Of a stretch of 64,000 bases of DNA, positions 17,961-64,000 are shown piece by piece (positions within the stretch are counted from its first letter, which is position 1; each line of letters begins with the position of its first letter). Source of the stretch: Phoronis australis. Lineage: Eukaryota > Animalia > Phoronida. The notes under the pieces were generated by a model. That model was not told the origin of the DNA, searched no databases, and was given only the letters and a program-made list of their open reading frames with translations. The position numbers and the translations under genes are program-made. The stretch covers positions 173,017-237,016 of the forward strand of contig NMRA01000387.1 of assembly GCA_002633005.1 (NCBI GenBank). Reading direction: 5' to 3'.

Positions 17961-18189
17961 CGTGTCAGACAAGTCTAGAAAAGAGCGTGAAAGGGAGCGC
18001 CGAGAGCAATACAAGCAAGTGAGAGCACATGTCAAAAAAGACGATGGACGTCTGCAGGCATATGGGTGGAGCCTACCCGCCAAACTGACGACTATCCCCA
18101 CCCACCAAAGCTCGCAAAACAAACCACAGGTGCCAGTACCTGTCCCTGTCTATTGCCGCCCTCTGTTGGAGAAAGAACATGGAATGAAG
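17961..18189 (+). CDS. MAPK8IP3: JIP3/4 exon (REQYKQVRAHVKKDDGRLQAYGWSLP...PVPVYCRPLLEKEHGMK)
   Basis: ttacag acceptor, AAG|gtgggt donor. Confidence 0.96.
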
Positions 18190-19754
18190 GTGGGTTGTTG
18201 GTTTTTCTATAAATGATATCAGTGATATTTCTGCCACATTTTTGGTAAACAACTACTAACTTGACAACTGATGTGAATTGAATTTGAATGATTCAGGTAA
18301 TTAAATTTTTGTGAGAGTCAGGGATGTCATTTCCCGTTATCGAAGTAAAAGTATCTTAGACATTGTTTTAAAACATTCCTCATTATTTTTCAACTTTAAA
18401 CCAGTCAATCTTTTGTGAGTCGAGCATTTCAAAAGTTTATCTCATCAATACACAGATTTTGCCGTAAACTGTCCTGCTAGACCAATAGGGAAACAAAGTC
18501 AAGGATTTTGGCCTACAGTACATAGCATTAACTAAACTACCGTGAAGCACAGGTATTGAATCAGATACACAGTCATACAGTCGTTCATTTTGTCTTAGTA
18601 TTGTGACAGAAGCATGATAAGTTAAAATTTAATCAGATTTTTTGGTGCAATGGGGACAGAAATGTCCATGAATGATGATAAGATCCACAATACTAAGAGC
18701 TCTATTATGTAACATGTTTAAACCACGAAGGGTCTTTAACACTTGCAATATGGTGGTCTGATCATGATAATCACTGAAATGTACTTATAAAAGCTCCTGT
18801 GTTGTGATGTACTGAAGTTATAAACTCTGTCTTGGAAGATTTTAAAGTAGCTATAAACTCGACTTTCATTACAAAAATCAGCTTTAGATTTAGAACTCTT
18901 ACCAATAGGACACAGATTGTCCTCAGTCAGATTGGAGGTGATTTCAGGACTGGAGACACTGACAGTACATTATTGCTTGAAATGAGCCTCTACTATTTGG
19001 CAAGTCATGACATGTCATTTTATGCCNACCGAACATGATCTAAAAGAATATTAATGAAATTCAGTTCTTTGCAAACACAGAAAACCCTTCTTATCTGAGT
19101 AAGGAACAACTTGAAATCAAATTTTCAATGGTTGTGGTCTAAATCAAAGTTTTGCTTTGTAGACAGAACATGGATTGATAACGTCTTTAAATTAATTTGT
19201 AAATTCTTAAAGCCATTAAGCGTGTAACAATCAGCCCTTACCTTGAATGAAACCATGAGTTTTGGCAATGCTCCTATCTGTATTCATTGAGAAAAATCAA
19301 AAAGATCTCCAAGAAGGCATAAGTGACATACACTGTATCGTTCAATGGTTATACAGTGTTTAGTGGTTGTGTTTCATATAGGGTTTTGGCCTAGACTAGT
19401 GCATTTTGTTTGCCGGTTTTGTTTATTAATTCAAGGCTGTGGAAATGCCATGCACGCAGGGGTTGATAAAATAAAATTTTTAACAATGTGTGCTGACTTT
19501 CATCTGTTTTTCTTGCTTTCACGTCTTGTTCCAAAGTTCAAAATAAACAAAGTAAATAGACGATCAGTTCTGGATATTTGTCACAGAAACGGAAAGTTCA
19601 CAACAGACAAAAGTGTCGTAAACCAAGTTTAGTGTTCATGCGCAAACACCAATTTACAATAAGTGTTGTAAAGCAATCTGCGTTTATGCACGAATACCAA
19701 ATCAGTCCCATTTTCAAGCATAGCTTTACAGATATCAGATTCTGCCTTAATATG

Positions 19755-19977
19755 TGGTAAAATCTCACCAATTTTGGACAAAAAGAATTTAACAAAATGA
19801 CATTTTTGTGTTTTCAGGCATTTCTCACATTGTTGCCTGCATTTTTTCGAAACTTTATCTAAGGCAGTTGTAGTAGAAAACTTGAAAATGGAGAAGAATA
19901 ATATGTTTTATGCAAAAACTGATAGAATGAAAATATTCGCTTGTCGTCCACAGTTTCATAATGGAGAGCTTTTACCA
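19755..19977. mobile_element. MITE (ggtaaaatctcacca TIR family)
   Basis: Imperfect TIRs; same family as 53189-53426. Confidence 0.55.
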
Positions 19978-21589
19978 TTTTGCATATCGCTGTGGTCATT
20001 CTCCTTTGATGTAGCTCACTGCATATCAGATATGTGGGTGGCTAGTCTGCCTTGATGTATCTTTAAATATCTGGTCATTAGTTCTAAATGTAGCTTAACT
20101 GCACATTTGCTATGCCCGCCTACAGCGTATGAGATAATTGTGTGGTAGTTTTACCGTGGTGCACCTTTATTGCATATCAGATATGTGGTTGTAACCTGTA
20201 GTTTGTAGGTGACAGCTGTAAATGGACAAGCCATGAACTCAAGGTTTGAATGATGGCTTCTTATCCATTTCATTTCATCTCCCTGCATGCTGATGGTTCT
20301 TATCACAATGGCTTCACTTGGTTGACACAGAAATGCATGTTGCATCACCATAGTGGCTTCAATTGAATCATTTTAGGCAATAATCTTTTGACAAATTTAA
20401 GGAGCAAAGCTTGATGCTGCGCTGTATTTAATCTCATCCTACACTGTCTATTTTTGCATTTTTCGTATTTTTACACTTGAAAACCTCCAGAATTTGATTT
20501 TTTGACTTAATATAAATCTGTCATTAATTGGGTCACAAGCCCATGTCTTTTTAATAAAAAACAAAAAATTGTTATAATTGGTCGGGATGAAATTTCAAAA
20601 ACACTGTTTCAGTTTTCTAAACAACTGTTTCGTTTTTGCCCCTAATGTAAGTTTAACATTAAAAATACGACTAACAGCATTTTGGAAAGATGTGCGTTAA
20701 AGCTAAATCGCAATATCTGAAAGTTTCGTTTCATTCTGCTATTTGGGAGGAAAGATGTTCCAAAGTTATCCAAATTTTAATGTTTTTCTAGGGTCTGACA
20801 TAACCTTAACTGGCAAACAGAATTCAGTGTCATATAAACTCTTAGTATTGGGTGTTTTTGTTTGGTATTTATTATATATTAGTCACAGATAAATCTGACA
20901 TTCTTGAGACTGACTGGTAAAGTCGTGCGATTTTCTGACAACCGCAAGGTGATTTTTCATCCACAAAATTCCGTAAGGACCCTTTCAATAAAAGGAGTTG
21001 GCACTTTTGTAGTCTTGTATTGCCTACCTGGTAACACACCAGTCCCCTACATCATGAAGATATAAAAAAAAAAACAATAAGACATTTCCTTCAAGCCCAC
21101 GCTTGTGTTCAGTTTGCCTTCCATGGACATGAAGTTTTAATTACCATGTGTCTCCATCACCCTGCCGCCTTTCTAATGATGAATTTTAACAGCTTTACTA
21201 TGCACTTTATAGTTTGTAAGTAGCTTAAATGCTGCCAGGATGTGCTCCAGATTGCAGGTGAAAGTACTAACACCTGTATGCACCCAGTGTGACTTCTGGG
21301 TCATTTAATGAGTTTGCAACAAAAGACAATTATATTTGATGATAATTTTGGCTTATGTGTGGGTTAAAGGTAATTCCAGTGTGAAGTCTTGTTTTATACC
21401 CAAAGCACAGCATGCTGTTTGTTAAGGCAATTACTTCACTCTATAACAGTGCACACCTAGGACCATATCACTCCCAGTTGCACATAAAAGCCCTGCAGTA
21501 GTCACAGGTAATTGCCCTTAATTTTTGTGTTGTAAACAATATTTGTTGATAGATTACACAAATGCATACATGTTCAGTTAATTGGCATA

Positions 21590-21920
21590 ATAGGTTTAAT
21601 CCCTAATCACAGTTTTATTATAACATGCTGCCTTTCTTTCTTGTTCTGACACCTGCCAGGTGACATGTCAACACTCATAATCCTTCCATTGTTTCCTTCT
21701 GGGTTCAACCATGTGACTGAAGCTGGCTTCCTATTGGCTGATGGTTTTCATGTGTCAGATGGCTGTCAGTAAGGTGTCCATGTTAATGGCAGGATTAGGT
21801 CTGTGTGTTATTCAGTCTATGGGGGTGACAACTGTCAGGCATTTAGTACAAGGTTCTTCCCTTGACGCCTGTCATTGTCTCTGTAGTATAAAGGCCCTGG
21901 TCTGGGCTGAATTGATCATA
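21590..21920 (+). promoter_or_regulatory. Promoter of the nested intronless gene
   Basis: TATAAAGG at 21887, Inr-like TCATA at 21916-21920, reverse CCAAT at 21733, eight TGACA/TGTCA at 21647-21874, three TAATCC/GGATTA. Confidence 0.65.
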
Positions 21921-21985
21921 ACCAATCGACCAGCCTTTGAATACACACATTTGACTGAGAAGACATTGGACACTTGATTGAAAGG

Positions 21986-22282
21986 ATGGAGAGGTTTCGC
22001 CTGCATGCACAACTCTACCAGACTCAACAGAAGTTCTTAATGAGCTGCACCCAACTCAAGTTGCTGGACCGTGAATTGAAGGACTTGTGTGTACGCCACA
22101 AGCGAGCAATGAGTAGGGGTAACAAAGGTATATCAGCCCAACTTTTCACCAGATGGATGTGCACGAACAATTTACGGCAGGTGTACTTCTGTTACGTCCA
22201 GGAAAAAGCACAGGAAGTAATCGACTTAAGATGGAAGGCATTTGGCGAAGACGACGACTGGAGGGACATATTCTCATCATAA
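21986..22282 (+). CDS. Nested intronless gene, 98-aa uncharacterised helical protein (MERFRLHAQLYQTQQKF...DIFSS)
   Basis: AGGATGG Kozak context, coding-like composition, own TATA promoter, ATTAAA at 22617; not spliceable into the JIP3 frame. Confidence 0.75.
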   Translation: MERFRLHAQLYQTQQKFLMSCTQLKLLDRELKDLCVRHKRAMSRGNKGISAQLFTRWMCTNNLRQVYFCYVQEKAQEVIDLRWKAFGEDDDWRDIFSS

Positions 22283-23230
22283 ATGGTCACATCATGTGCC
22301 TGAGAAACCAACAGTCCTTTTAAGGACTACCCACACCATCCAAAGAGATCTGTTCACTTACTGAGTATCATTGGACCAGTTAATTCACTTCATATGTTAT
22401 TGTTCCAAAATTTGTTCTGATGTTAACTGCTCACAATGCTGAAATACGTAAATCGGTTCCAAATTAGTAAAATTAATATTTTATACCATCATTGGAAATG
22501 TCATTTTTTAAAACGCCTTTTGAATTTCCCAAGCTCTGTATATAATGTGTTAGGAACATGCGTTACAAATATTATGATTATGAATTTCTGCTTTATTTTG
22601 GCATGGTTTAGTGTTCATTAAATCAACGCTTGATCAACTGCTGTTTATTGCTAATTAATATGGTAAGCCGTTGATCATTGGAAAAAATGCCAATGAATAT
22701 TGGTGGTAATTTGTGCGTGCAAAATGATATAATTAGGATTTCAGTAAAATGTCTGTTTGACAGTTTACATTCGAATAGGTGGTATTGCAATAATTTCCGA
22801 GTTGATGATACTAGCAAGTTGCAAAAATCTTCATATTACTTTACTGTCAAAAGTCGTGCTTTATCAGCACAGTTTGGCAATCAAGTATTAGTAAATTGTA
22901 AGTAATACAGTCAAGTTTTTATTTTGTGTTGGAGGCAAAAATCTTCAGTAAAAAACTCTCAATTAAATAATCGCCACTGTCTGCAATTTGTGTTTCTGAA
23001 ACTTGTTGGAGAAATTAAAGGGACCATTTACCAAGTATTTTTTACTGTGATTATGCACTGTCAGTAATAACCTCTGAGACTAGGAAACAACTGATCATGT
23101 GTTGTTTGGTCATGTTTTTAAACTCTGTTATTGTTTCTATCCATTTTAAGAATGTTCAAATAATCTCCCATGATGTTGAATACCACCAGTTGTATATTGA
23201 TGGACATATTATTCTCGGGTTTTATTACAG

Positions 23231-25010: not shown

Positions 25011-25259
25011 GTGCAAAAGAGAACGACTTTCCTGTTGACGAGGAATTCTTAAACATTGGTGAGAGCACACAATCTGAGTCATCCAGTCAGAGTCAGATGA
25101 GTAAGAACTCAAGCTCGGCCAGTCTGACCAGTGAGAACAGTGGAAGTACCGATGCAACTGGGATAGGGGGCGTTACCTTTGTGCAGTGTGCAACAGGAAG
25201 TAGTCGAGCTAGTAATGCAGCAACACCTGTTGGCTCACCAGCGACACCAACGGTGAAAG
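25011..25259 (+). CDS. MAPK8IP3: JIP3/4 exon (GAKENDFP...TPTVK), Ser/Thr-rich linker
   Basis: caatag acceptor, AAG|gtatgg donor. Confidence 0.9.
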
Positions 25260-25639
25260 GTATGGGAAGTGTGTAATCGTATAAAAACAAGTCTTCTACA
25301 GTAGCTGCTGTAAACTCTTGTGTATTGCATGTAAACTCATTCTGTATTGACAGTCATTAATTTTGTTTAATCCGTGTTCTAGAAAATTGGGGTTCTGTTT
25401 TGTTCAGTTTATCTAATAATTAAACTTTTATCCGTAGCTTGGTTTGTAGCGTAGTTGTTACATTTTGCTTATTTGCTGCGATTAGTGAAATGGGAAAAAT
25501 GACAATTTTTGCCAATTGTATTCAGCTGATTGTAGTATTTGGCATGCTGCTTTCATATGGTTACTTAATTGCCGATTTCATGCTGCCAATTATGTTAACA
25601 TTGCTACATTCATACTGTTCCACTCCTGTTAATACATTC

Positions 25640-25835
25640 ATATTGCTGCTTTTGCATTATTTGCTACTTTCATATTGCTACTTTCATATTGCTACTTTCA
25701 CATTGGCTACTTTCATATTGCTATGTTCATATCGCTACGTTCATATTGCTACTTTCATGTTGCTCCGTTCATATTACTTCTTACATATTGCTCCATTCAT
25801 ATTGCTGCTTCCATATTCCTACTTCCATATTGCTA
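25640..25835. repeat. 15-bp minisatellite (catattgctactttc); second copy ~26900-27101
   Basis: Tandem degenerate units. Confidence 0.85.
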
Positions 25836-25837
25836 AG

Positions 25838-25915
25838 AGCTGAGTCCTGAAGCCAGAACCAGTATTACACAAGTAACTGAGGCCGTACAGAATATGACAG
25901 CTGATACTCTCCGAG
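25838..25915 (+). CDS. MAPK8IP3: JIP3/4 candidate 78-nt phase-1 exon (ELSPEARTSITQVTEAVQNMTADTLR); duplicate at 27104-27181
   Basis: ctaag acceptor, GAG|gtaaca donor, open frame; the only difference between copies is synonymous (CTC/CTT). Confidence 0.65.
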
Positions 25916-28353
25916 GTAACAAGCATTAGGTTATAATTTGCACGTGATAGGAAATGCGTGAGAGCAAGTGTTATCCTTATTGCAGTGTATCTGTCCATTT
26001 AGTGCACGGAATAGCCACGTCCCCAATTCATACTCTCCTCTTTTGCGGAGATAGAGAACGCACTGTTTGGATGACTGACTTTAATTTATTGTTTGGTAGA
26101 TAGGCAACTAAGACACTTTTGAGGTGGACATTAATAGAAATGGTTTACCACACCCTGCTGAACTTGTTGGATTCGTTGGTGTCAACAATGAAGACAAGCT
26201 GTACTGCCCTTGACAAAAGATACATTTACGTATTTTTCATTAGGCTCAGTATTCTTATTAAAGCTGTACTTTGCCCTGTTTAGCTGGCTGAAACAAAAAT
26301 CGAATTGGGCCTTTAATTCTCATAAAATAGGTCTAAAATTCCTTGCCATGATAGGGCTTTTTTTCAATGATAAAGAATAACATAAAATTACAGGCCTTCA
26401 TATACTGGTTATGAGATGCAGTAGAAAANAGTAATGCAGCAACACCTGTTGGCTCACCAGCAACACCAACGGTGAAAGGTATGGATAAAGTGTGGAATCG
26501 TATAAAAACAAGTCTTCTACAGTAGCTGCTGTAAACTCTTGTGTATTGCATGTAAACTCATTCTGTATTGACAGTCATTTATACTCTAGCTCATTCATCA
26601 TTAATTTTGTTTAATCTGTGTTCTAGAAAATTGGGGTTCTGTTTTGTTCAGTTTACCTAATAATTAAACTTTTATCCGTAGCTTGGTTTGTAGCGTAGTT
26701 GTTACATTTTGCTTATTTGCTGCGATTAGTAAAATGGGAAAAATGACAATTTTTGCCAATTGTATTCAGCTGATTGTATTCAGCTGATTGCAGTATTTGG
26801 CATGCTGCTTTCATATGGTTACTTAATTGCTAATTTCATGCTGCCAATTATGTCAACATTGCTACATTCATACTGTTACACTCCTGTTAATACATTGCTG
26901 CTTTTACATTATTTGCTACTTTCATATTGCTACTTTCATATTGCTACTTTCACATTTGCTACTTTCATATTGCCATGTTCATATTGCTACATTCATATTG
27001 CTACTTTCATGTTGCTCCGTTCATATTACTTCTTTCATATTGCTCCATTCGTATTGCTACTTCCATATTGCTACTTCCATATTGCTACTTCCATATTGCT
27101 AAGAGCTGAGTCCTGAAGCCAGAACCAGTATTACACAAGTAACTGAGGCCGTACAGAATATGACAGCTGATACTCTTCGAGGTAACAAGCATTAGGTTAT
27201 AATTTGCACGTGCTAGGAAATACATGAGAGCAAGTGTTATCCTTATTGCAGTGTATCTGTCCATTTAGTGCACGGAATAGCCATGTCCCCAATTCATACT
27301 CTCCTCTTTTGCGGAGATAGAGAACGCACTGTTTGGATGACTGACTTTAATTTATTGTTTGGTAGATAGGCAACTAAGACACTTTTGAGGTGGACATTAA
27401 TAGAAATGGTTTACCACACCCTGCTGAACTTGTTGGATTCGTTGGTGTCAATAATCAAGATAAGCTGTACTGCACTTAGCTGGACAAAGGATACATTTAC
27501 GTATTTGTCATTAGGCTCAGTATTCTTATTAAAGCTGTACTTTGCCCTGTTTAGCTGGCTGAAACAAAAATCGAATTGGGCCTTTAATTCTCATAAAATA
27601 GGTCTAAAATTCCTTGCCATGATAGGGCTTGTTTTCAATGATAAAGAATAACATAAAATTACAGACCTTCAATACTGGTTATGAGATGCAGTAGAAAATC
27701 GTTGGTTTTATTAGTTGGCCAATCCTATAATTCTCAAATGGCATACAAAGATAAGCCAGTCACATGACCGATGACACTCAATGAGTGGCCATTTCCTGTG
27801 AGTTCAGTAGATCAGCTGTTGATTTTGACTCTAGTTGAAAACTTGAAATATATTTAAAGTGACAGCTTAACATTGCACAATTCAGCTTTATTTACAGTAC
27901 TGTACAAGCAGTGTAGCATTGTGATATTTTAAGAAGTGTGTAACTTGTCGCTGTTAGATCTGTTCATAGTTAGCTCAGAACCTAGCTACAAACCAAACCA
28001 AAACTCTGTGAAACAGATAAAAACTCAAGTCTCGTTTTGTAACTTGACAAAAACTTTAGATCCTCGTGGATTCTTTCCATGAGCCACTACTCTTGTACCA
28101 TAAGCATGTCCCTGTTTTTACTCTAAAAGGCACTTGCTAATTTCAACCTATCCATAACATGCTCAAAGTTTTTGTAAATTTCTCTAAACCCAACTTTTAA
28201 AAGGCTAGTGGTAACATTTTTATTTCTTACTTTATGTCCTTTCATCCATGCATCTGTTTTCTTGTCCTTCTGTCAGTCTGTTTGTCTGTCTGTGTTTTTG
28301 TCTGTTATTAATGTCTGTCTGTCTGTGTGTCTCACGGTTTGACTTTACTTTAG

Positions 28354-29930: not shown

Positions 29931-30900
29931 CCGTATTCACCCTAATAAGCGCCCATGCCACTATAAGCGTCCCCTACGCATTTTCAGACTTTGCTAAAAT
30001 AAGCGCCCAGCCCATGAACGTGACTGCGTATACATGCGAAAAATGCCTTACCTGCAGTTCTAAAATTCTATAGTAACGTCTTCAATTTATCAATAATATC
30101 TGACAGTCCTGACAGGCCTTTCAGAACAGACGCAGCTTACTTATCAACAGGATTGTATCGTATCTTTCCTGTACAGATTTTCTCCCTCAACAGGAATCTA
30201 GACTTTTTTGTACACGTGAAAACTGCAAATCGAAGACTAATAAAAAAACTTGACCAGTGTTAAAAGCCCATGGCAAGGAAGCGCACACTACATACATGTA
30301 GGCCTGCTACTGGGGCGAGTGAACTCTGACGACACGCACGTGCTTGCTTGCTCGGCACACACCTGCAGACGAACTTCAAAACAAATGTCACGTGACAACA
30401 ACATGTGTGTTTGTGGGCTGTTCATCCATATTTTTCTCGTGTTGCTGGGTGCGATCTAGCGCAGATTTGGACTTAATCGGCAGTTAATCCCGACTCCACT
30501 GGAAATTAAAAATCTTAGGGACGCTATTTAGAAAACTTTAGGAGGATTTCAGGTAATTTGTTGAGTCGAAACTGTATTTTTATTCAAGAATTCAAGTTGC
30601 CCTAGTGACGATCGCGAGGCAGCGACGCATCAGTTGGCGAGTTTTCACCCAGGGATTTCCGCACAATTTTCTAAAAAAGGATCTAATTTAACAATGAAGT
30701 TTGATAGCAATGCACCACAGTTGTGTGGAAAGTCTATCATAGGTTATAGATATGTCGCAGAGTGTAAATTTGATGAATCTTCGCTTCCAATTTCACCCGT
30801 TTTGGAGAGCGGATTTCAACCGCCTTTGGCTACAATGAGCGCCCCCCCTCCCAAAGCGAGTTTTTCTAAGCTCCCTGGACGCTTATTAGGGCGAATACGG
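29931..30900. mobile_element. Non-autonomous Tc1/mariner-type element (~970 bp)
   Basis: TIRs CCGTATTCACCCTAATAAGCG / CGCTTATTAGGGCGAATACGG, flanked by TA on both sides; partial second copy 31812-32658. Confidence 0.85.
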
Positions 30901-33131
30901 TATATCAATTTATCATTGGTTTTGTGGAAATGCAGTTCTTGCTGTTTTTGCATGAAGTATCCCTTGATGTGGGGTAGTATCCCCTTATGTGGGGTAGTAT
31001 CCCCTTATGTGGGGTAGTATCGCCTAAAATGGGCCTTAGCTTACTACTATTGCTCAATATTATATAATTCTCTTATCCTGTTCCTCCCCTTTTCCTATTT
31101 CTTGGGGCATTTTGCTGCAGTATGCAAATGCTGTACACAGCTAGCTCTCCTTTACAGTCTCACGCAGCACTAGTAAGGTCAAGCCAAAGAGGCAAACTCC
31201 AATGTGAATAAATCAAGTTAGTGACGGTAAATCTTTCAGTTGTAGTAATCAGCCAGCTTCATTCGGTCCGTGATGTAACTAGGAGTTTCAACTCATTGTT
31301 TTCAAAAACCAAAACAAAGGATTCCATCCCTAAGGGCTGTTCCAGCAAAATCTGTATGGGAGGGGGGGGAAGGCACTTTTATTTCGTACCCACCGCCCAT
31401 ATTTTTCATTTATTTCTCCAACCCATGACCCATAATTTTTTAATTATTTTTAATAGGTTAAAATATAAAATCCAACACTTGCAAACAAATTGCCTCCAGG
31501 AGGACCTGTTAAGAACTTAGATGATTGACAGACAAGAACTAGTTGTCTTGTCCAATATTGTCAAAAATTAAAGTAGCCTGTGAACAATACTTTTGGCAGC
31601 CACCAGGTGTCTCTGTTCACCATGTGTCTATAATTTCAATGAACATTTTTTCAATTATAAGGATCTATGAATCTCAAACTGTCTCCACAAACTCTTTTAT
31701 ACTTCTATGTCAAGTGAATATTGGAACTTGTTTATCTTACTCCTCATACTTTTTATTTAAAAATCATCAATTTTCTTATATGTGTTAACACCAGTTTAGT
31801 GTTGCATAACNTGCGAAAAATGCTTCACCTGCAGTTCTAAAATTCTACAGTAATGTCTTCAATTTATCAATAATATCTGAATGTCCTGACAGGCCTTTCA
31901 GAACAGACACAGCGTACTTATCAACAGGATTGTATCGTATCTTTCCTGTACAGATTTTCTCCCTCAACAGACTTCTTTGTACACGTGAAAACCGCAAATC
32001 GAAGTCTAATAAAAAAACTTGGCCAGTGTTAAAGGCCCGTGGCCAGGAAGCGCGCGCTACATACATGTAGGCCTGCTACTGGGGCGAGTGAACTCTTGAT
32101 GACACGCACGTGCTTGCTTACTCGGCACACACCTGCAGACGAACTTCAAAACAAATGTCACGTGACAACAACATGTGTGTTTGTGGGCTGTTCATCCATA
32201 TTTTTCTCGTGTTGCGGGGTGCGGTCTAGCGCAGATTTGGACTTAATCGGCAGTTAATCCCGACACCACAGGAACTTAAAAATCTTAGGGACGCTATTCG
32301 GAAAACTTAAGGAGGATTTCAGGTAATTTGTTGAGTCGAAACTGTATTTTTATTCAAGAATTCAAGTTGCCCTAGCGACAATCGCGAGGCAGCAATGCAT
32401 CAGTCGGCGAGTTTTTGCCCAGGGATTTCCGCACCATTTTCTAAACAAGGATATATATTTACAATTAAGTTTGATAGCAATGCACCACAGTTTTGTGGAA
32501 AGTCTATCGTAGGTTATAGATATGTCGCAGAGCGTAAATTTGATGAATCTTCACCCGTTTTGGACAGCGGATTTCAACCGCCTTTGGCTACAATAAGCGC
32601 CCCCCCTCCCAAAACGAGTTTTTCTAAGCGCCCTGGACGCTTATTAGGGCGAATACGGTATGTCAATTTATCATTGGTTTTGTGGAAAGGCAGTTCTTGC
32701 TGTTTTTGCATGAAGTATCCCCTGATGTGGGGTAGTATCCCCTTATGTGGGGTAGTATCCCCTTATGTGGGGTAGTATCCCCTTATGTGGGGTAGTATCC
32801 CCTTATGTGGGGTAGTATCGCCTAAAATGGGCCTTAGCTTACAACTATTGCTCAATATTATATAATTCTCTTATCCTGTTCCTCCCCTTTTCCTATTTCT
32901 TGGGGCATTTTGCTGCAGTATGCAAATGCTGTACACAGCTAGCTCTCCTTTAAAGTCTCACGCAGCACTAGTAAGGTCAAGCTAAAGAGGCAAACTCCAA
33001 TGTGAATAAATCAAGTTAGCGATGGTAAATCTTTCAGTTGTAGTAATCAGCCAGCTTCATTCGGTCCATGATGTAATTAGGAGTTTCAACTCATTGTTTT
33101 CAAAAACCAAAACAAAGGATTCCATCCCTAA
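30035..33131. repeat. ~1.3 kb direct duplication (30035-31333 / 31812-33131); second copy begins after single N31811
   Basis: Near-identical copies; probable allelic haplotypes. Confidence 0.88.
30961..31020. repeat. 20-bp VNTR (ccccttatgtggggtagtat) x3; x5 at 32719-32818
   Basis: Head-to-tail units, no spacers. Confidence 0.9.
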
Positions 33132-59206: not shown

Positions 59207-60992
59207 ACTCGACCTGGAACTTTAACAAAAAATATCTCATGATAAAGTAATTAAATATAATTGAACTGGATGACGACCTGTCGCCCGTGTTAAAAGTAAT
59301 GAAATTACCTAACTAATATGAACCACCTCTAAATTTTAATAACAGCAGACAACACCTGGTGCAAAGTCATAATTTCTACCGATCTAGGGACTTATATAAA
59401 GGTGTTAAATATAGAACGCCTGTATACTTGCTTCAGAGTACGAATGTTACAAGACTGGTGCGGAAGTGCTTATCAGAAAACCGTGAGTTTCAGGTATATT
59501 CTGTGACCATCTTCAGAATCAAATGAAACGCTCGTTTTATTGAAGGCAAGGTAAAAAAAAACTAATAAAAAAAAAAACTAATGTGAAGGAAAGACGATTC
59601 CAACATCCGAGTGGTTTTAAGAAGTGTTGATCCTGCTTGTAAAACTACCGTACATTCAAAAGGGATTACTCGATATACACCTAGGCCTATTCAGGGCCAT
59701 GCACCTATATTCGAAAACAATGCTTTGTTTCAAAGCAATTTGTTCTCTCAGATGTTTCACATATCGGTGCGCGGTGCCGTAGGCGGAATCCCTTGCACAT
59801 ATATAAGAATGTCTAATTGGTATGTTGTAGTGACACAGGTCCACAGTCTACAGCGGTTCGAACTTTGTCACTGCAATAAAATACAATACCACTGAAGGCG
59901 CGGCTTGGGCCTACTAAAGGCGCACATTGTCTCGGCCAGATCGTCCAAAATAATACAATAGTAAGATGCTTCTCATCTACTATAACAGACCTATTACAAC
60001 CATCCACCATAATATGGGGCGCTGACTGTCTAAATTTCAACCTTTAGCCACTGATGCTATATAGGACATCGATACTTTTATAACTTTGGAAAAAGATTTA
60101 TTTCCTACTTATTCGTTTTGTGCAACTTCAGAGGCCCGTGCTCATATAGACAGTCGAACCAAGACACAGATTGAGAGACCAAACCAGCAGGAGATTTACG
60201 TTTAAAATGGCTGAACGAACAAATTGTAAAATTTTGTTTACAACGACACTACATTTTTGACGATATTCTGTCCTTCAGCCATCTGAGTAAATATTGGTTT
60301 TGACTGAATGAACGCGGATACTTTATTGACGCTTTTGACATTACCTCCCTCTGAAAAAGTATGATCAGCACCATAAATTCATCAAAGGAGAATGAAATTA
60401 AAAAGCCACATAATTGGAGTCATTAATTACTTAAATGTTTATCGATAAAGATACTTTCACTTTTGAATATATTTGACCTTTAATTTTTATTCTTTTTGTA
60501 TAATAATAGGGAGGGTGATAGTTTGCCATAACAGCTCCGCCTGACAGCGGGTTTCACGATTTGTAAGCTGAATACCGTTTGGTCAGAATGCGACTGTCGG
60601 TGATTGCGGCTGCGTTGTCGCATTCATTTAGCATACAGTCTCCAGGTGAGTCTTGTGCAAGCTTCTATGATATGTAATTCTTCTCAATAATCTTTGTATG
60701 TCTGATCTGAATCGGTGTCTTTTTAATTCAGCTGTCATTTCTAACTTCCGCGCAACAACCTAAGACATTGTCTGTCGATGATTGTTTTTGACGTCTGTCA
60801 GTGCGGCTTAACGTAACACTTATTGATTTAGGAAAGGGTATTGACGTCCGATGTGTCTGTTTTGTAGATGTGCTCTGACGGAGGAACACAAGCAAGCATT
60901 TTGCATAGGGGCTGAACGGGTGCAGGTCTGGAATAATCCCGGCGAAAACTTTCATTTATTTGTGTCCCTTTTCTGACCTAAAAACTTCCAAG

Positions 60993-62409
60993 ATGGCGAC
61001 TTCCGAAAACAATGTGGTGTTCGTAACCTCCAAAGAAGCCGATGCCAACACCGTGAGTGTCGACATCGAATCGCCCGCCAAAAACAGAATACGAGGCACT
61101 CCAGTCAGTGGTGCGACTGCTAAACCGCGAAGATTTCCCATCTTGTTTGAGAGAGCTGCAAAAAGCTGGTACAACCCTAGATTTAACTCTACCCTTCTCG
61201 AGAACCAAGTTGGAGAAAGTTTCTTCCCCCAGACTCGGACGAGATTCCAGTTTGGCTTGGGATACATCATCTTTTGCTGTGTTGTTTGGACCATCTTCTT
61301 TTCAATTCAAGGCGAGGACCATTGGACCAGTTATATTATAGGAACACTATCTTTATTAGCCGTTTCTGTTTTGATTCTTATATTTACGTTCACGAGGTTT
61401 TATGAGTCCTATTTTGTACCGGTTTCACTTGGCTTGTCCATAATATTGTGTGCCCTGGTCTGTGGACAGTTTGGTCTACAGCCGTCTAATTTGTCCACAG
61501 TTGGCGCATTCACGGGCGCCATTGAAATAATTTTCCTGATGTATACTGTGTTCCCTATGCCGTTATACTCTTGTGTTTTAATTGGAGTCATATTTTCAAT
61601 TGTGTTTGAAGTATTGTGCGCGGTTTTGACTGACATGACGAGTGGTCACTTTATCGTTGGAAAAATCATGCTCCATATCTGTATTCATCTTATTGGCATT
61701 CACACGTTCATCATGTCTCAAGTACGTAAACGAAGTACATTCTGGAAGGTTGGACAATCAATCATTGCTCGCAGAGATTTACAAGTTGAAAAGCAACTCA
61801 AAGAAAAAAGCATCCACTCACTTATGCCTCCCAAAGTGGCGCGTGAAGTCATTGGTGCACGTGACACCTCCAAAAGTGCTGATGGAAAAATTGCCTTTCG
61901 TCCATTTAACATGCACGACCAGGACAATGTTAGTATATTATTTGCCGATATTGTCGGTTTCACAAAAATGAGCTCCAATAAGACGGCGGAACATCTTGTT
62001 GATTTACTCAATGATTTATTTGGCCGGTTCGACAAACTCTGTGTGGAGTGTGGTTGCGAGAAAATCAGCACTCTGGGTGACTGTTACTACTGCGTCTCTG
62101 GTTGTCCTGAGGCACGTGATGACCATGCAGTGTGTTGTATTGAGATGGGTCTGGGAATGATCAAGGCGATTAAAGAGTTTGACGAGGACAATAATGAACA
62201 AGTAAACATGAGAGTGGGTGTTCACACTGGCAAGGTGCTCTGTGGTATTGTGGGTACACGCCGGTTCAAGTTTGACGTTTTCTCCAATGATGTTGATCTA
62301 GCCAATTATATGGAGTCATCTGGGAAGCCAGGTCGTGTGCACATCTCAGAGATGACCTATGAGTTTGTCAAGGACGAGTACGACGTTGAAAAGGGATCAG
62401 AAGTTGACG
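60993..62409 (+). CDS. ADCY9: Adenylate cyclase type 9, first coding exon (N-terminus, M1 transmembrane helices, C1a); 3'-partial
   Basis: LFERAAKSWYNPRFNS, IHSLMPPKVA, AFRPFNM, VSILFADIVGFTKMSSNKTA, CEKISTLGDCYYCVSGCPE, NMRVGVHTG, FKFDVFSNDV are AC9-type motifs; CAAGATGG start; donor GAC G|gtaggt (alternative AG|gtgagc at 62413). Confidence 0.95.
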
Positions 62410-64000
62410 GTAGGTGAGCCACGCTGTAGTGGGCAGCGAGACTTGTGGTTAAACCCCTTATTGAAAAAGTATTTAATGGGTGAAATCCAAATTGTTAGGC
62501 ATTTCAAGAAAGCATAGTTGGTTCTGATCTGTGTTCGACTGTGCAACTCATTTTGTGTCCTGTGCTCATCGACAAGAAATGAAAATGTCCGCCCGCATTA
62601 TTTCTTGTCAAGATCTCGTGTTTTTGTCAAGGTCTTGTGTTTTTTTGAAGCTCCAGTCAAGCACATAAGCAAAGGCAACCAAGATTTGATTTGAAACTTG
62701 GCACAATTTGCTAAGCGATGAGTAAAAGAAAAGGAAATCTGTTCTTGACCCAAGAAGATTTCTTTTTTGAAAAAATGAACAGTAACTGAAAACAAATACT
62801 GCACGTCCATTTTCAAAACCAACTATGCTAATACAAAGCCTCTGATATGAGCCTTTGTATTGCCAAATTCAATTCATTCTGGATGTTATGTGTTATTCAT
62901 ATCACACTGTAACATCCCAACTAACAAATTGTAATTTGATATCCAGTTACAATCCAAGAAAACCTTGGCATATGTGCGACCTTTCAACTACGTTGCATGG
63001 TGCGTAACTGAAATGCAATGATGATGGAAGTCAATCACCATTGTGAGCTATGATCCCTACTATGCTAAAGTTCTCTGATAGAACACACCATTGGAACATT
63101 CAGTATAAATTTAACTTGTTTGATTTTGACATTGGCTTACAAAAACCAGTCCAGCTCTGACTTGCCTGGTATCTCTAGTCTAGGGAAGTTTGATAATCAC
63201 ACAAAATTTCTTAGGAATCAAATTAATTCCAGCACTAATATTTATGTATTACATTTAAAGCAATTGTCTGATACAACGTGTCCTTATTTTGAGAACCAGT
63301 TTGATGCCTGTTATTCAGTGGAGAAAGCTGGTTCAGGCACGTTATATCAGGCCATTACCACATTTAAAGCTGCCTTTTGAAAATGAAAAAGGAGAATTTG
63401 GCTTATACTCTCATAAAATCGGTCTCATAATACTGGTTGTAAACAGCACTAGAATTGTATCATGTTAAGGGATGTTCCCAGACCGATTTTATGAGTCTGA
63501 GTAAAAAGCCATTCAATTTTTGGAACAGTGTGAAAAATGTCATGAATAAAATCTACTCTGTTATTCTAATTAAAACATTTTGAATTATCAGTGGCTATGG
63601 AATGAGTTATCCAAAGTGTTTAATGTTTTCCTTGTCCCCTCAGGTGTTAGTTATATTAGTTAGCTTCATAGCTTCACAGTTTCTCTATTGTACTTAAACA
63701 CTTCAGACAGGGTGGCAAAGTGCATAGGACTCCTTTGCATATTTCTGTGCTTGGCTTCCTATCGTCCAGGGTAACTTTATTATAATGATTCTGCTAATCA
63801 ATGTTCAATTTGAAGTTGCATCCATAAACAGCCTGCACAGATGTATTACATTCCAGGTACATAAGTTTTGGATTAAGGGGAGCATTTCTGCTGCACTCTT
63901 TTTTTCCGTTGGGCGCATTTAATTATAAAGCTCGATCATGTTATCAGCCAGCATAACATGTTTGTATTAAGTGTTTCTATTTGTCTAGACACTATTCTGC

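Follow-up and report, generated by a model that had tools for sequence, protein, structure and literature searches.

A TGACA-rich region upstream of an intron-nested gene of Phoronis australis is likely the promoter switch of a gene family with histone-type 3' ends

The window analyzed here, i.e., the whole stretch of 64 kb of Phoronis australis DNA, contains a short gene that is nested, on the same strand, in an intron of a JIP3/JIP4 (MAPK8IP3/SPAG9) gene (Table 1). The host was identified by matches to Pfam JIP_LZII (E 2e-19) and WD40_2, and both JIP3 and JIP4 chains matched it. Spliced RNA reads skip the 5,041 nt of the intron, from 18187 to 23229 with GT..AG ends (22 junction reads in two of the four runs), and these junctions span both the motif cluster and the open reading frame, which bears out the nesting proposed from the DNA letters. 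The cluster itself occupies the proximal upstream region of an intronless, TATA-bearing gene, as the original prediction had it.

Table 1. Features at the nested gene and its host intron, in window coordinates.
Feature	Position	Strand	Basis or remark
Host intron of JIP3/JIP4 (MAPK8IP3/SPAG9), 5,041 nt	18190..23230	+	same strand as nested gene
Three TAATCC/GGATTA sites (21597, 21678, 21792)	21597..21797	.	enriched at the locus, not in relatives
TGACA/TGTCA cluster, eight sites (21647, 21661, 21666, 21753, 21764, 21826, 21833, 21870)	21647..21874	.	likely proximal promoter of the nested gene; motif scan, shuffles, relatives
One-mismatch TALE dimer site; first 8 bases also a T-box-like half-site	21647..21658	+	
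Second one-mismatch TALE dimer palindrome site	21826..21837	+	
Third one-mismatch TALE dimer palindrome site	21863..21874	+	
TATA box TATAAA	21887..21892	+	motif scan
Predicted initiator TCAT, A 31 nt after TATA start	21916..21919	+	inferred from sequence
Intronless ORF, 98 aa, divergent member of a two-helix coiled-coil family	21986..22282	+	family profile E 4.9e-16
Histone-type stem-loop, 6-bp stem, UUUA loop	22313..22328	+	31 nt after stop
ACCCA, predicted cut after it	22329-22333	+	directly 3' of stem-loop
Purine-rich histone downstream element AAAGAG, predicted U7 site	22342..22347	+	14 nt after stem

Other observations concern the host and its neighbor. A large exon of adenylate cyclase 9 lies 3' of the JIP3/JIP4 gene (60909-62417); it is closest to Haliotis (61%), Mytilus, Lineus, and Owenia, with deuterostomes at 50-53%. 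The JIP3/JIP4 and adenylate cyclase 9 genes also share one human chromosome band, which suggests an old linkage between the two. Within the host there is a tandem duplication of ~1.25 kb (25211-26400 and 26430-27671, 92-98% alike) whose repeated part takes in one JIP3/JIP4 exon end and the beginning of the spliced piece that follows (25838, 27104); it may be an exon duplication or the assembly of two haplotypes. A second tandem duplication, with a period of ~1.77 kb, is found inside a host intron (30032-31255 and 31809-33053, 93-98% alike).

The upstream region had been singled out for its TGACA/TGTCA, TAATCC/GGATTA, and CACCTG/CAGGTG motifs and its TATA box, and a motif scan recovered all of them where they had been reported, CACCTG at 21650 and CAGGTG at 21657 included. 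The claim that their density exceeds the background is borne out for TGACA, which occurs 8 times in the 311 bp from 21590 to 21900, vs 1.49 times expected, a count that none of 2000 dinucleotide shuffles reached. Over the 64 kb, no other 230-bp window holds as many TGACA as the cluster (8 sites vs 6 in the runner-up and a mean of 1.0). The motif was chosen post hoc, and its P at the locus, corrected for being the best of 512 5-mers, is ~0.045. Hence, the locus alone provides modest evidence and the independent test comes from the relatives of the gene. TAATCC is also in excess (3 vs 0.12 expected; one of the 2000 dinucleotide shuffles reached 3). The excess of CACCTG is not significant (2 vs 0.38 in shuffles, P 0.05); instead of a separate signal, its better interpretation is that it belongs to T[CG]ACACCT or to a TALE dimer.

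Three sites of the region are within one mismatch of the dimer-like sequence TGACA[CG][CG]TGTCA and account for three of the five such sites in the 64-kb window; shuffles of the region give 0.01, and none of 2000 reaches 3. The promoter of the nested gene also has one exact and five one-mismatch T-box sites, and the motif scan found no PBX-partner site in it. The reads of two RNA runs differ from the window by T to G at 21858, a position that shortly precedes the third dimer-like site; no read differences are listed within the dimer-like sites themselves, at low read depth.

Searched against 1.84 billion representatives, the 98-aa protein of the nested gene gave 42 matches at E 0.001, the best at 6.5e-9 with 39% identity (one of the 42, with low coverage, is omitted from the protein alignment), and a search with the family profile gave 172 further matches. 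The named sources among the 30 clusters looked up are Dreissena, Patella, Lineus, Tubulanus, Magallana, Pinctada, Mactra, and Mya, to which the profile search added Mizuhopecten. All named members are annotated as hypothetical or uncharacterised, and no Pfam family is common to the 42. Judged by these matches, the protein is a member of an uncharacterised coiled-coil family of molluscs and nemerteans. It lacks the family's central FRYNLRL-type motif, and the family profile still recovers it (Table 1). A search with a word index found no match for the 98-aa protein, and the Atlas gave only scores of ~0.8 for it and for an oyster relative. In its predicted structure (pLDDT 92.7), two helices of 40 residues form a hairpin, for which Foldseek returned no match at E 0.001. 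A wider structural search matched generic coiled coils (Z 10-11.7) with no leading match among them, so we draw no function from the fold, and the solved structures that match the protein by sequence include no histone. Across the family, the helical hairpin is basic and an acidic tail is often attached to it; we guess that the protein acts in the nucleus, likely as a partner of chromatin. A viral origin of the gene has no support, since viral contigs yielded no relative.

Genomic loci of relatives came from one metagenome scan, of which the best 80 of 104 relatives were kept, corresponding to 76 loci. The family is multicopy and dispersed, as had been supposed: this follows from the protein matches, from the profile search, and from the multiple family loci. 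A second copy lies on the same contig in five of them (L009, L024, L027, L052, and L034), and copies are arranged as tandem units of 1.5-2.0 kb, with one head-to-head pair in L034. In two loci, 5S rRNA genes are found within ~1 kb of family members (L059:364-482; L066:1434-1552 and 1803-1886). Near other family genes there are exon-like pieces of formate-tetrahydrofolate ligase and of glycogen debranching enzyme on the opposite strand (L044:313-633 (-) and L053:1176-1895 (-)), which makes it likely that other copies are nested in introns too.

For the analysis of promoters, 12 of the 76 loci were dropped because they had less than 300 nt upstream, and the remaining 64 fell into 35 groups, each with one representative, whose upstream regions align neither with each other nor with the Phoronis australis window. 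TGACA is the top-ranked 5-mer upstream of these 35 non-alignable relatives and is present in 31 of their promoters, in agreement with the expectation that paralogs carry the motif cluster. It occurs 108 times in 12.2 kb of upstream sequence, vs 218 times in 59.9 kb of other flank (2.4-fold, P 8e-13, the P values overstating independence since the loci are interrelated) and vs 52 +/- 7 times in shuffles. The enrichment is specific to the motif: seven of its single-base variants range from 0.7- to 1.2-fold, and TGGCA is the exception with 2.0-fold. The longer TGACAG and TGGCAG are enriched 3.2- and 4.1-fold in these promoters. Both orientations of TGACA are evenly used (55 vs 53), no pairs with fixed spacing were found in the relatives, and none of the 35 promoters has more than 6 sites, vs 8 in that of the nested gene.

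These sites are concentrated just above the TATA box. A TATAWA is found 40-250 nt upstream in 24 of the 35 relatives, in which TGACA sites number 18-21 per kb over the 100 nt above the box and 1-5 per kb below it; the same 24 have a weak bias for C then A at +30/+31. The 150 nt above these family boxes contain 2.58 TGACA on average, vs 0.48 above other TATA-like sites of the same contigs (158 sites) and 0.63 above those of the 64-kb window (115 sites). Within the largest group, 16 of 18 alignable promoters retain three TGYCA sites amid drifting flanks, and the promoter of the nested gene aligns with none of these 16. The same group (L001-L021) also conserves ATTGTT, which we take to be Sox-like, AACG, and the 5' leader motif TTGCAATAGC. 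One-mismatch TALE dimer sites occur 7 times upstream of the relatives vs once in the background, and none of the relatives' promoters has a perfect palindrome, which indicates that the dimer arrangement belongs mainly to the nested Phoronis australis copy. As for TAATCC, the suggestion of a K50 site stands for the excess at the locus, but the motif is not a signal of the battery, because it occurs once upstream of the 35 relatives vs 12 times in the background (6 vs 15 when all 64 loci are counted).

The 3' side of the nested gene carries a histone-type end that had been missed in the first reading of the DNA and that, going by its letters, points to messages that would be linked to the cell cycle and lack poly(A). 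The full model of Rfam RF00032 matches positions 22308-22353 (E 4e-7, 32.4 bits vs a gathering cut of 34), and nothing else in the 64 kb matches Rfam at E 0.05. In the 40 relatives scanned, 6 RF00032 matches reach 34 bits and all Histone3 matches are on the gene's own strand. The 6-bp stem has G-C as its second pair and U-A as its top pair, and the loop has U at positions 1 and 3. The hairpin is the best fold within 26 nt (z -3.6), and is not the lowest-energy fold in its 78-nt context.

This type of end is frequent in the family. Among the 71 loci that have at least 150 nt downstream (5 of the 76 were dropped), 56 have a stem-loop and a downstream element on the sense strand, or 22 out of 31 when redundancy is removed, and none has them on the antisense strand (0/71). 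The stem-loop follows the stop codon by 14-174 nt in the relatives (median 36), and the downstream element keeps the same spacing from the stem. In 30 aligned stem-loops, 97.8% of the cells pair, four of the six pairs change on both sides, and the covariation exceeds that of all 500 shuffles; these rows were hand-picked for the hairpin, so the covariation weighs more than the pairing rate. The stem of the nested gene keeps all six pairs, two of them through changes on both sides. Promoters of genes with a stem-loop have on average 3.2 TGACA and those without it 2.7, which is not a difference (P 0.49). In two loci, a single gene is followed by a tandem pair of stem-loops (L071:1377-1414 and L035:589-625). 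Three of the loci with a stem-loop group with named proteins of Mya, Dreissena, and Mactra in a quick protein tree (120 columns, many open forks), which was used solely to place them beside named bivalve proteins.

We searched for the transcript of the nested gene in about one-fifth of each of three stranded RNA runs, and saw none. The stretch 21400-22600 received 20 reads, of which many start upstream of the TATA box; a single pair spans the predicted cut, and read ends do not pile up at the nested gene. The read depth is equal in introns elsewhere in the host. Hence, these reads look like host pre-mRNA. A message that lacks poly(A) and is limited to certain stages would escape such runs, so this result speaks neither for nor against expression.

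Given these data, the reading that we prefer, with a probability of roughly 0.6, is that the TGACA cluster is the promoter code of a family of histone-ended genes, which is probably read by a TALE factor and whose message is predicted to be cut by SLBP and U7. Its parts differ in strength. It is very probable that the region above the TATA box works as a promoter, and we expect with good confidence that the message of the nested gene stops at the stem-loop and carries no poly(A). Together, the comparisons of sequence make the cluster a likely switch of a gene battery widespread in marine animals, and possibly one that acts in the early embryo. With several short sites next to a TATA box, a short, unspliced message would be made in a rapid burst; it would be cut through the histone SLBP/U7 route, and its level would follow S phase. 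A TALE factor would read TGACA and a T-box factor would be the second input.

One alternative concerns the class of the factor, namely that a T-box factor is the main reader, that TGACACCT and TCACACCT are the optimal half-sites, and that many TGACA are weak versions of them. T[CG]ACACCT is indeed more strongly enriched than TGACA (24 upstream vs 5 in the background, 21-fold, in 17 of 35 promoters), and it peaks 0-100 nt above the TATA box in the relatives. TCACACCT, which has no TGACA inside it, is still found 12 times upstream vs 4 in the background, and its presence in three of the four promoters that lack TGACA fits a T-box reader. Drosophila Midline selects AGGTGTCA, according to the available part of the source (PMC3485041), and the nested copy has the exact and near T-box sites described above. 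However, TGACA remains enriched 1.9-fold after masking of the one-mismatch T-box-like sites, TGACAG and TGGCAG are not T-box sites and yet are enriched 3-4-fold, and the nested copy has three dimer-like sites that resemble the MEIS3 dimer motif TGACAGGTGTCA, listed in a table row of PMC5449588. We thus consider it rather unlikely that a T-box factor is the main reader and lean slightly towards the TALE class. The simplest reading of the two overlapping signals would be a TALE factor acting with a T-box factor. The original prediction of a TALE input is accordingly retained in part, for a TGACA that is family-wide and for the three near-perfect dimer sites at the nested copy.

Another explanation accepts the code but makes it general: the motif would belong to spiralian histone-type or proliferation genes, expressed in any cycling cell, and the nested gene would not be an early-embryo target. 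Histone genes adjoin 5S rRNA genes in some animals, and the family has copies in tandem units of 1.5-2.0 kb or head to head, two of them beside 5S rRNA genes, as well as a 3' end that is the S-phase histone cassette; TGACA may also mark many TATA promoters in these animals, two scans for histone genes with which to compare the promoters having returned none. Yet inspection by eye of the longer ORFs of the 76 loci revealed no histone gene, and three RNA runs are without the transcript, though poly(A) selection would hide one. We regard this explanation as unlikely. It is still harder to credit that the family code is real and the nested copy a drifting orphan with a promoter and a 3' signal that are inherited relics. 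This copy has at most 39% identity to any relative and a changed central motif, it is single inside its intron, and the three RNA runs have no transcript of it, but its ORF is open, full length, and predicted to fold as the family hairpin (pLDDT 92.7), its stem keeps six pairs with two compensated on both sides, and its 8 TGACA are more than in any of the 35 relatives. Finally, a common 5-mer could have accumulated here by chance, or the cluster could serve JIP3/JIP4 as an enhancer and be unrelated to the ORF, to which the corrected P at the locus alone (~0.045) would leave some room. The first rank of TGACA in 35 non-alignable relatives, at a fixed place above the TATA box, largely refutes this, and we give it hardly any weight.

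How far the preferred reading extends to the embryo is a matter of timing. The available text of PMC8524836 describes the SPILE D and E genes as maternal in mussel and limpet and the expression of SPILE A/C and B as starting at 4-16 cells, and that of PMC12550047 places the beginning of zygotic transcription in annelids at 4-16 cells. These data make an early timing plausible, not demonstrated, and we found no SPILE binding sequences or targets in print. It is conceivable, at somewhat less than even odds, that the battery fires in the fast-dividing cells of the cleavage and blastula stages, where maternal TALE factors of SPILE type are present. The more specific proposal of a spiralian first-wave battery, made of dispersed coiled-coil copies switched on by maternal SPILE and T-box factors and processed by SLBP and U7, seems doubtful to us. 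If true, the battery would be missed by embryo atlases that are based on poly(A) selection, and it would provide the first candidate direct targets of SPILE factors.

Histone messages are taught as the sole mRNAs with a stem-loop and U7 processing, a rule that a non-histone family with such an end would break. By the account in the available part of PMC4604434, no cellular mRNAs other than those of histones are known to lack poly(A), and SLBP CLIP in HeLa cells gave no true non-histone target. In the accessible text of a preprint on the evolution of the pathway (10.64898/2026.10.14.759114) there is no exhaustive metazoan screen and the word non-histone is absent, and the accessible portions of PMC13525598, PMC6210712, and PMC12862220 do not mention such a family. 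In the mostly open-access literature, supplements aside, we found no report of the coiled-coil family or of its 3' end. A family with a histone-type end would be under-counted in poly(A) RNA-seq. The motif common to its non-alignable copies hints at the kind of factor that may drive the battery, and it offers a short, testable promoter for targets of spiralian TALE (SPILE) and T-box factors, an open question for spiral cleavage.

The nested gene and its family resemble several known systems. They are similar to targets of TALE factors (MEIS/PKNOX/TGIF) by the enrichment of TGACA and TGACAG in either orientation, and the nested copy approaches the TALE dimer with three sites at one mismatch from TGACAGGTGTCA. 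They differ from such targets in that the relatives have mostly monomers, that the nested copy has no PBX-partner sites, and that all sites are predicted ones. Promoters with T-box half-sites (Brachyury, Tbx20/Midline, VegT, Eomes) share with the family the 21-fold enrichment of T[CG]ACACCT near the TATA box, but this half-site is found in only 17 of the 35 family promoters, has one exact occurrence in the nested copy, and does not account for the enrichment of TGACAG. First-wave zygotic genes, as described in fly and fish, are short and intronless with a TATA box, and the anatomy of the nested gene, with short sites clustered near such a box, is like theirs. However, their messages are polyadenylated, whereas the end of the family is of histone type. 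Histone messages end without poly(A), according to the available part of PMC4604434, and for the family a processed message of this kind is predicted. Replication-dependent histone genes differ from the family in their product, which in the family is modeled as a two-helix hairpin with no histone fold. In other respects the family is like them: its genes are short and intronless with a TATA box, they end in a 6-bp stem with a 4-nt loop, an invariant second G-C pair, and a purine-rich element at fixed spacing, and they occur in tandem copies.
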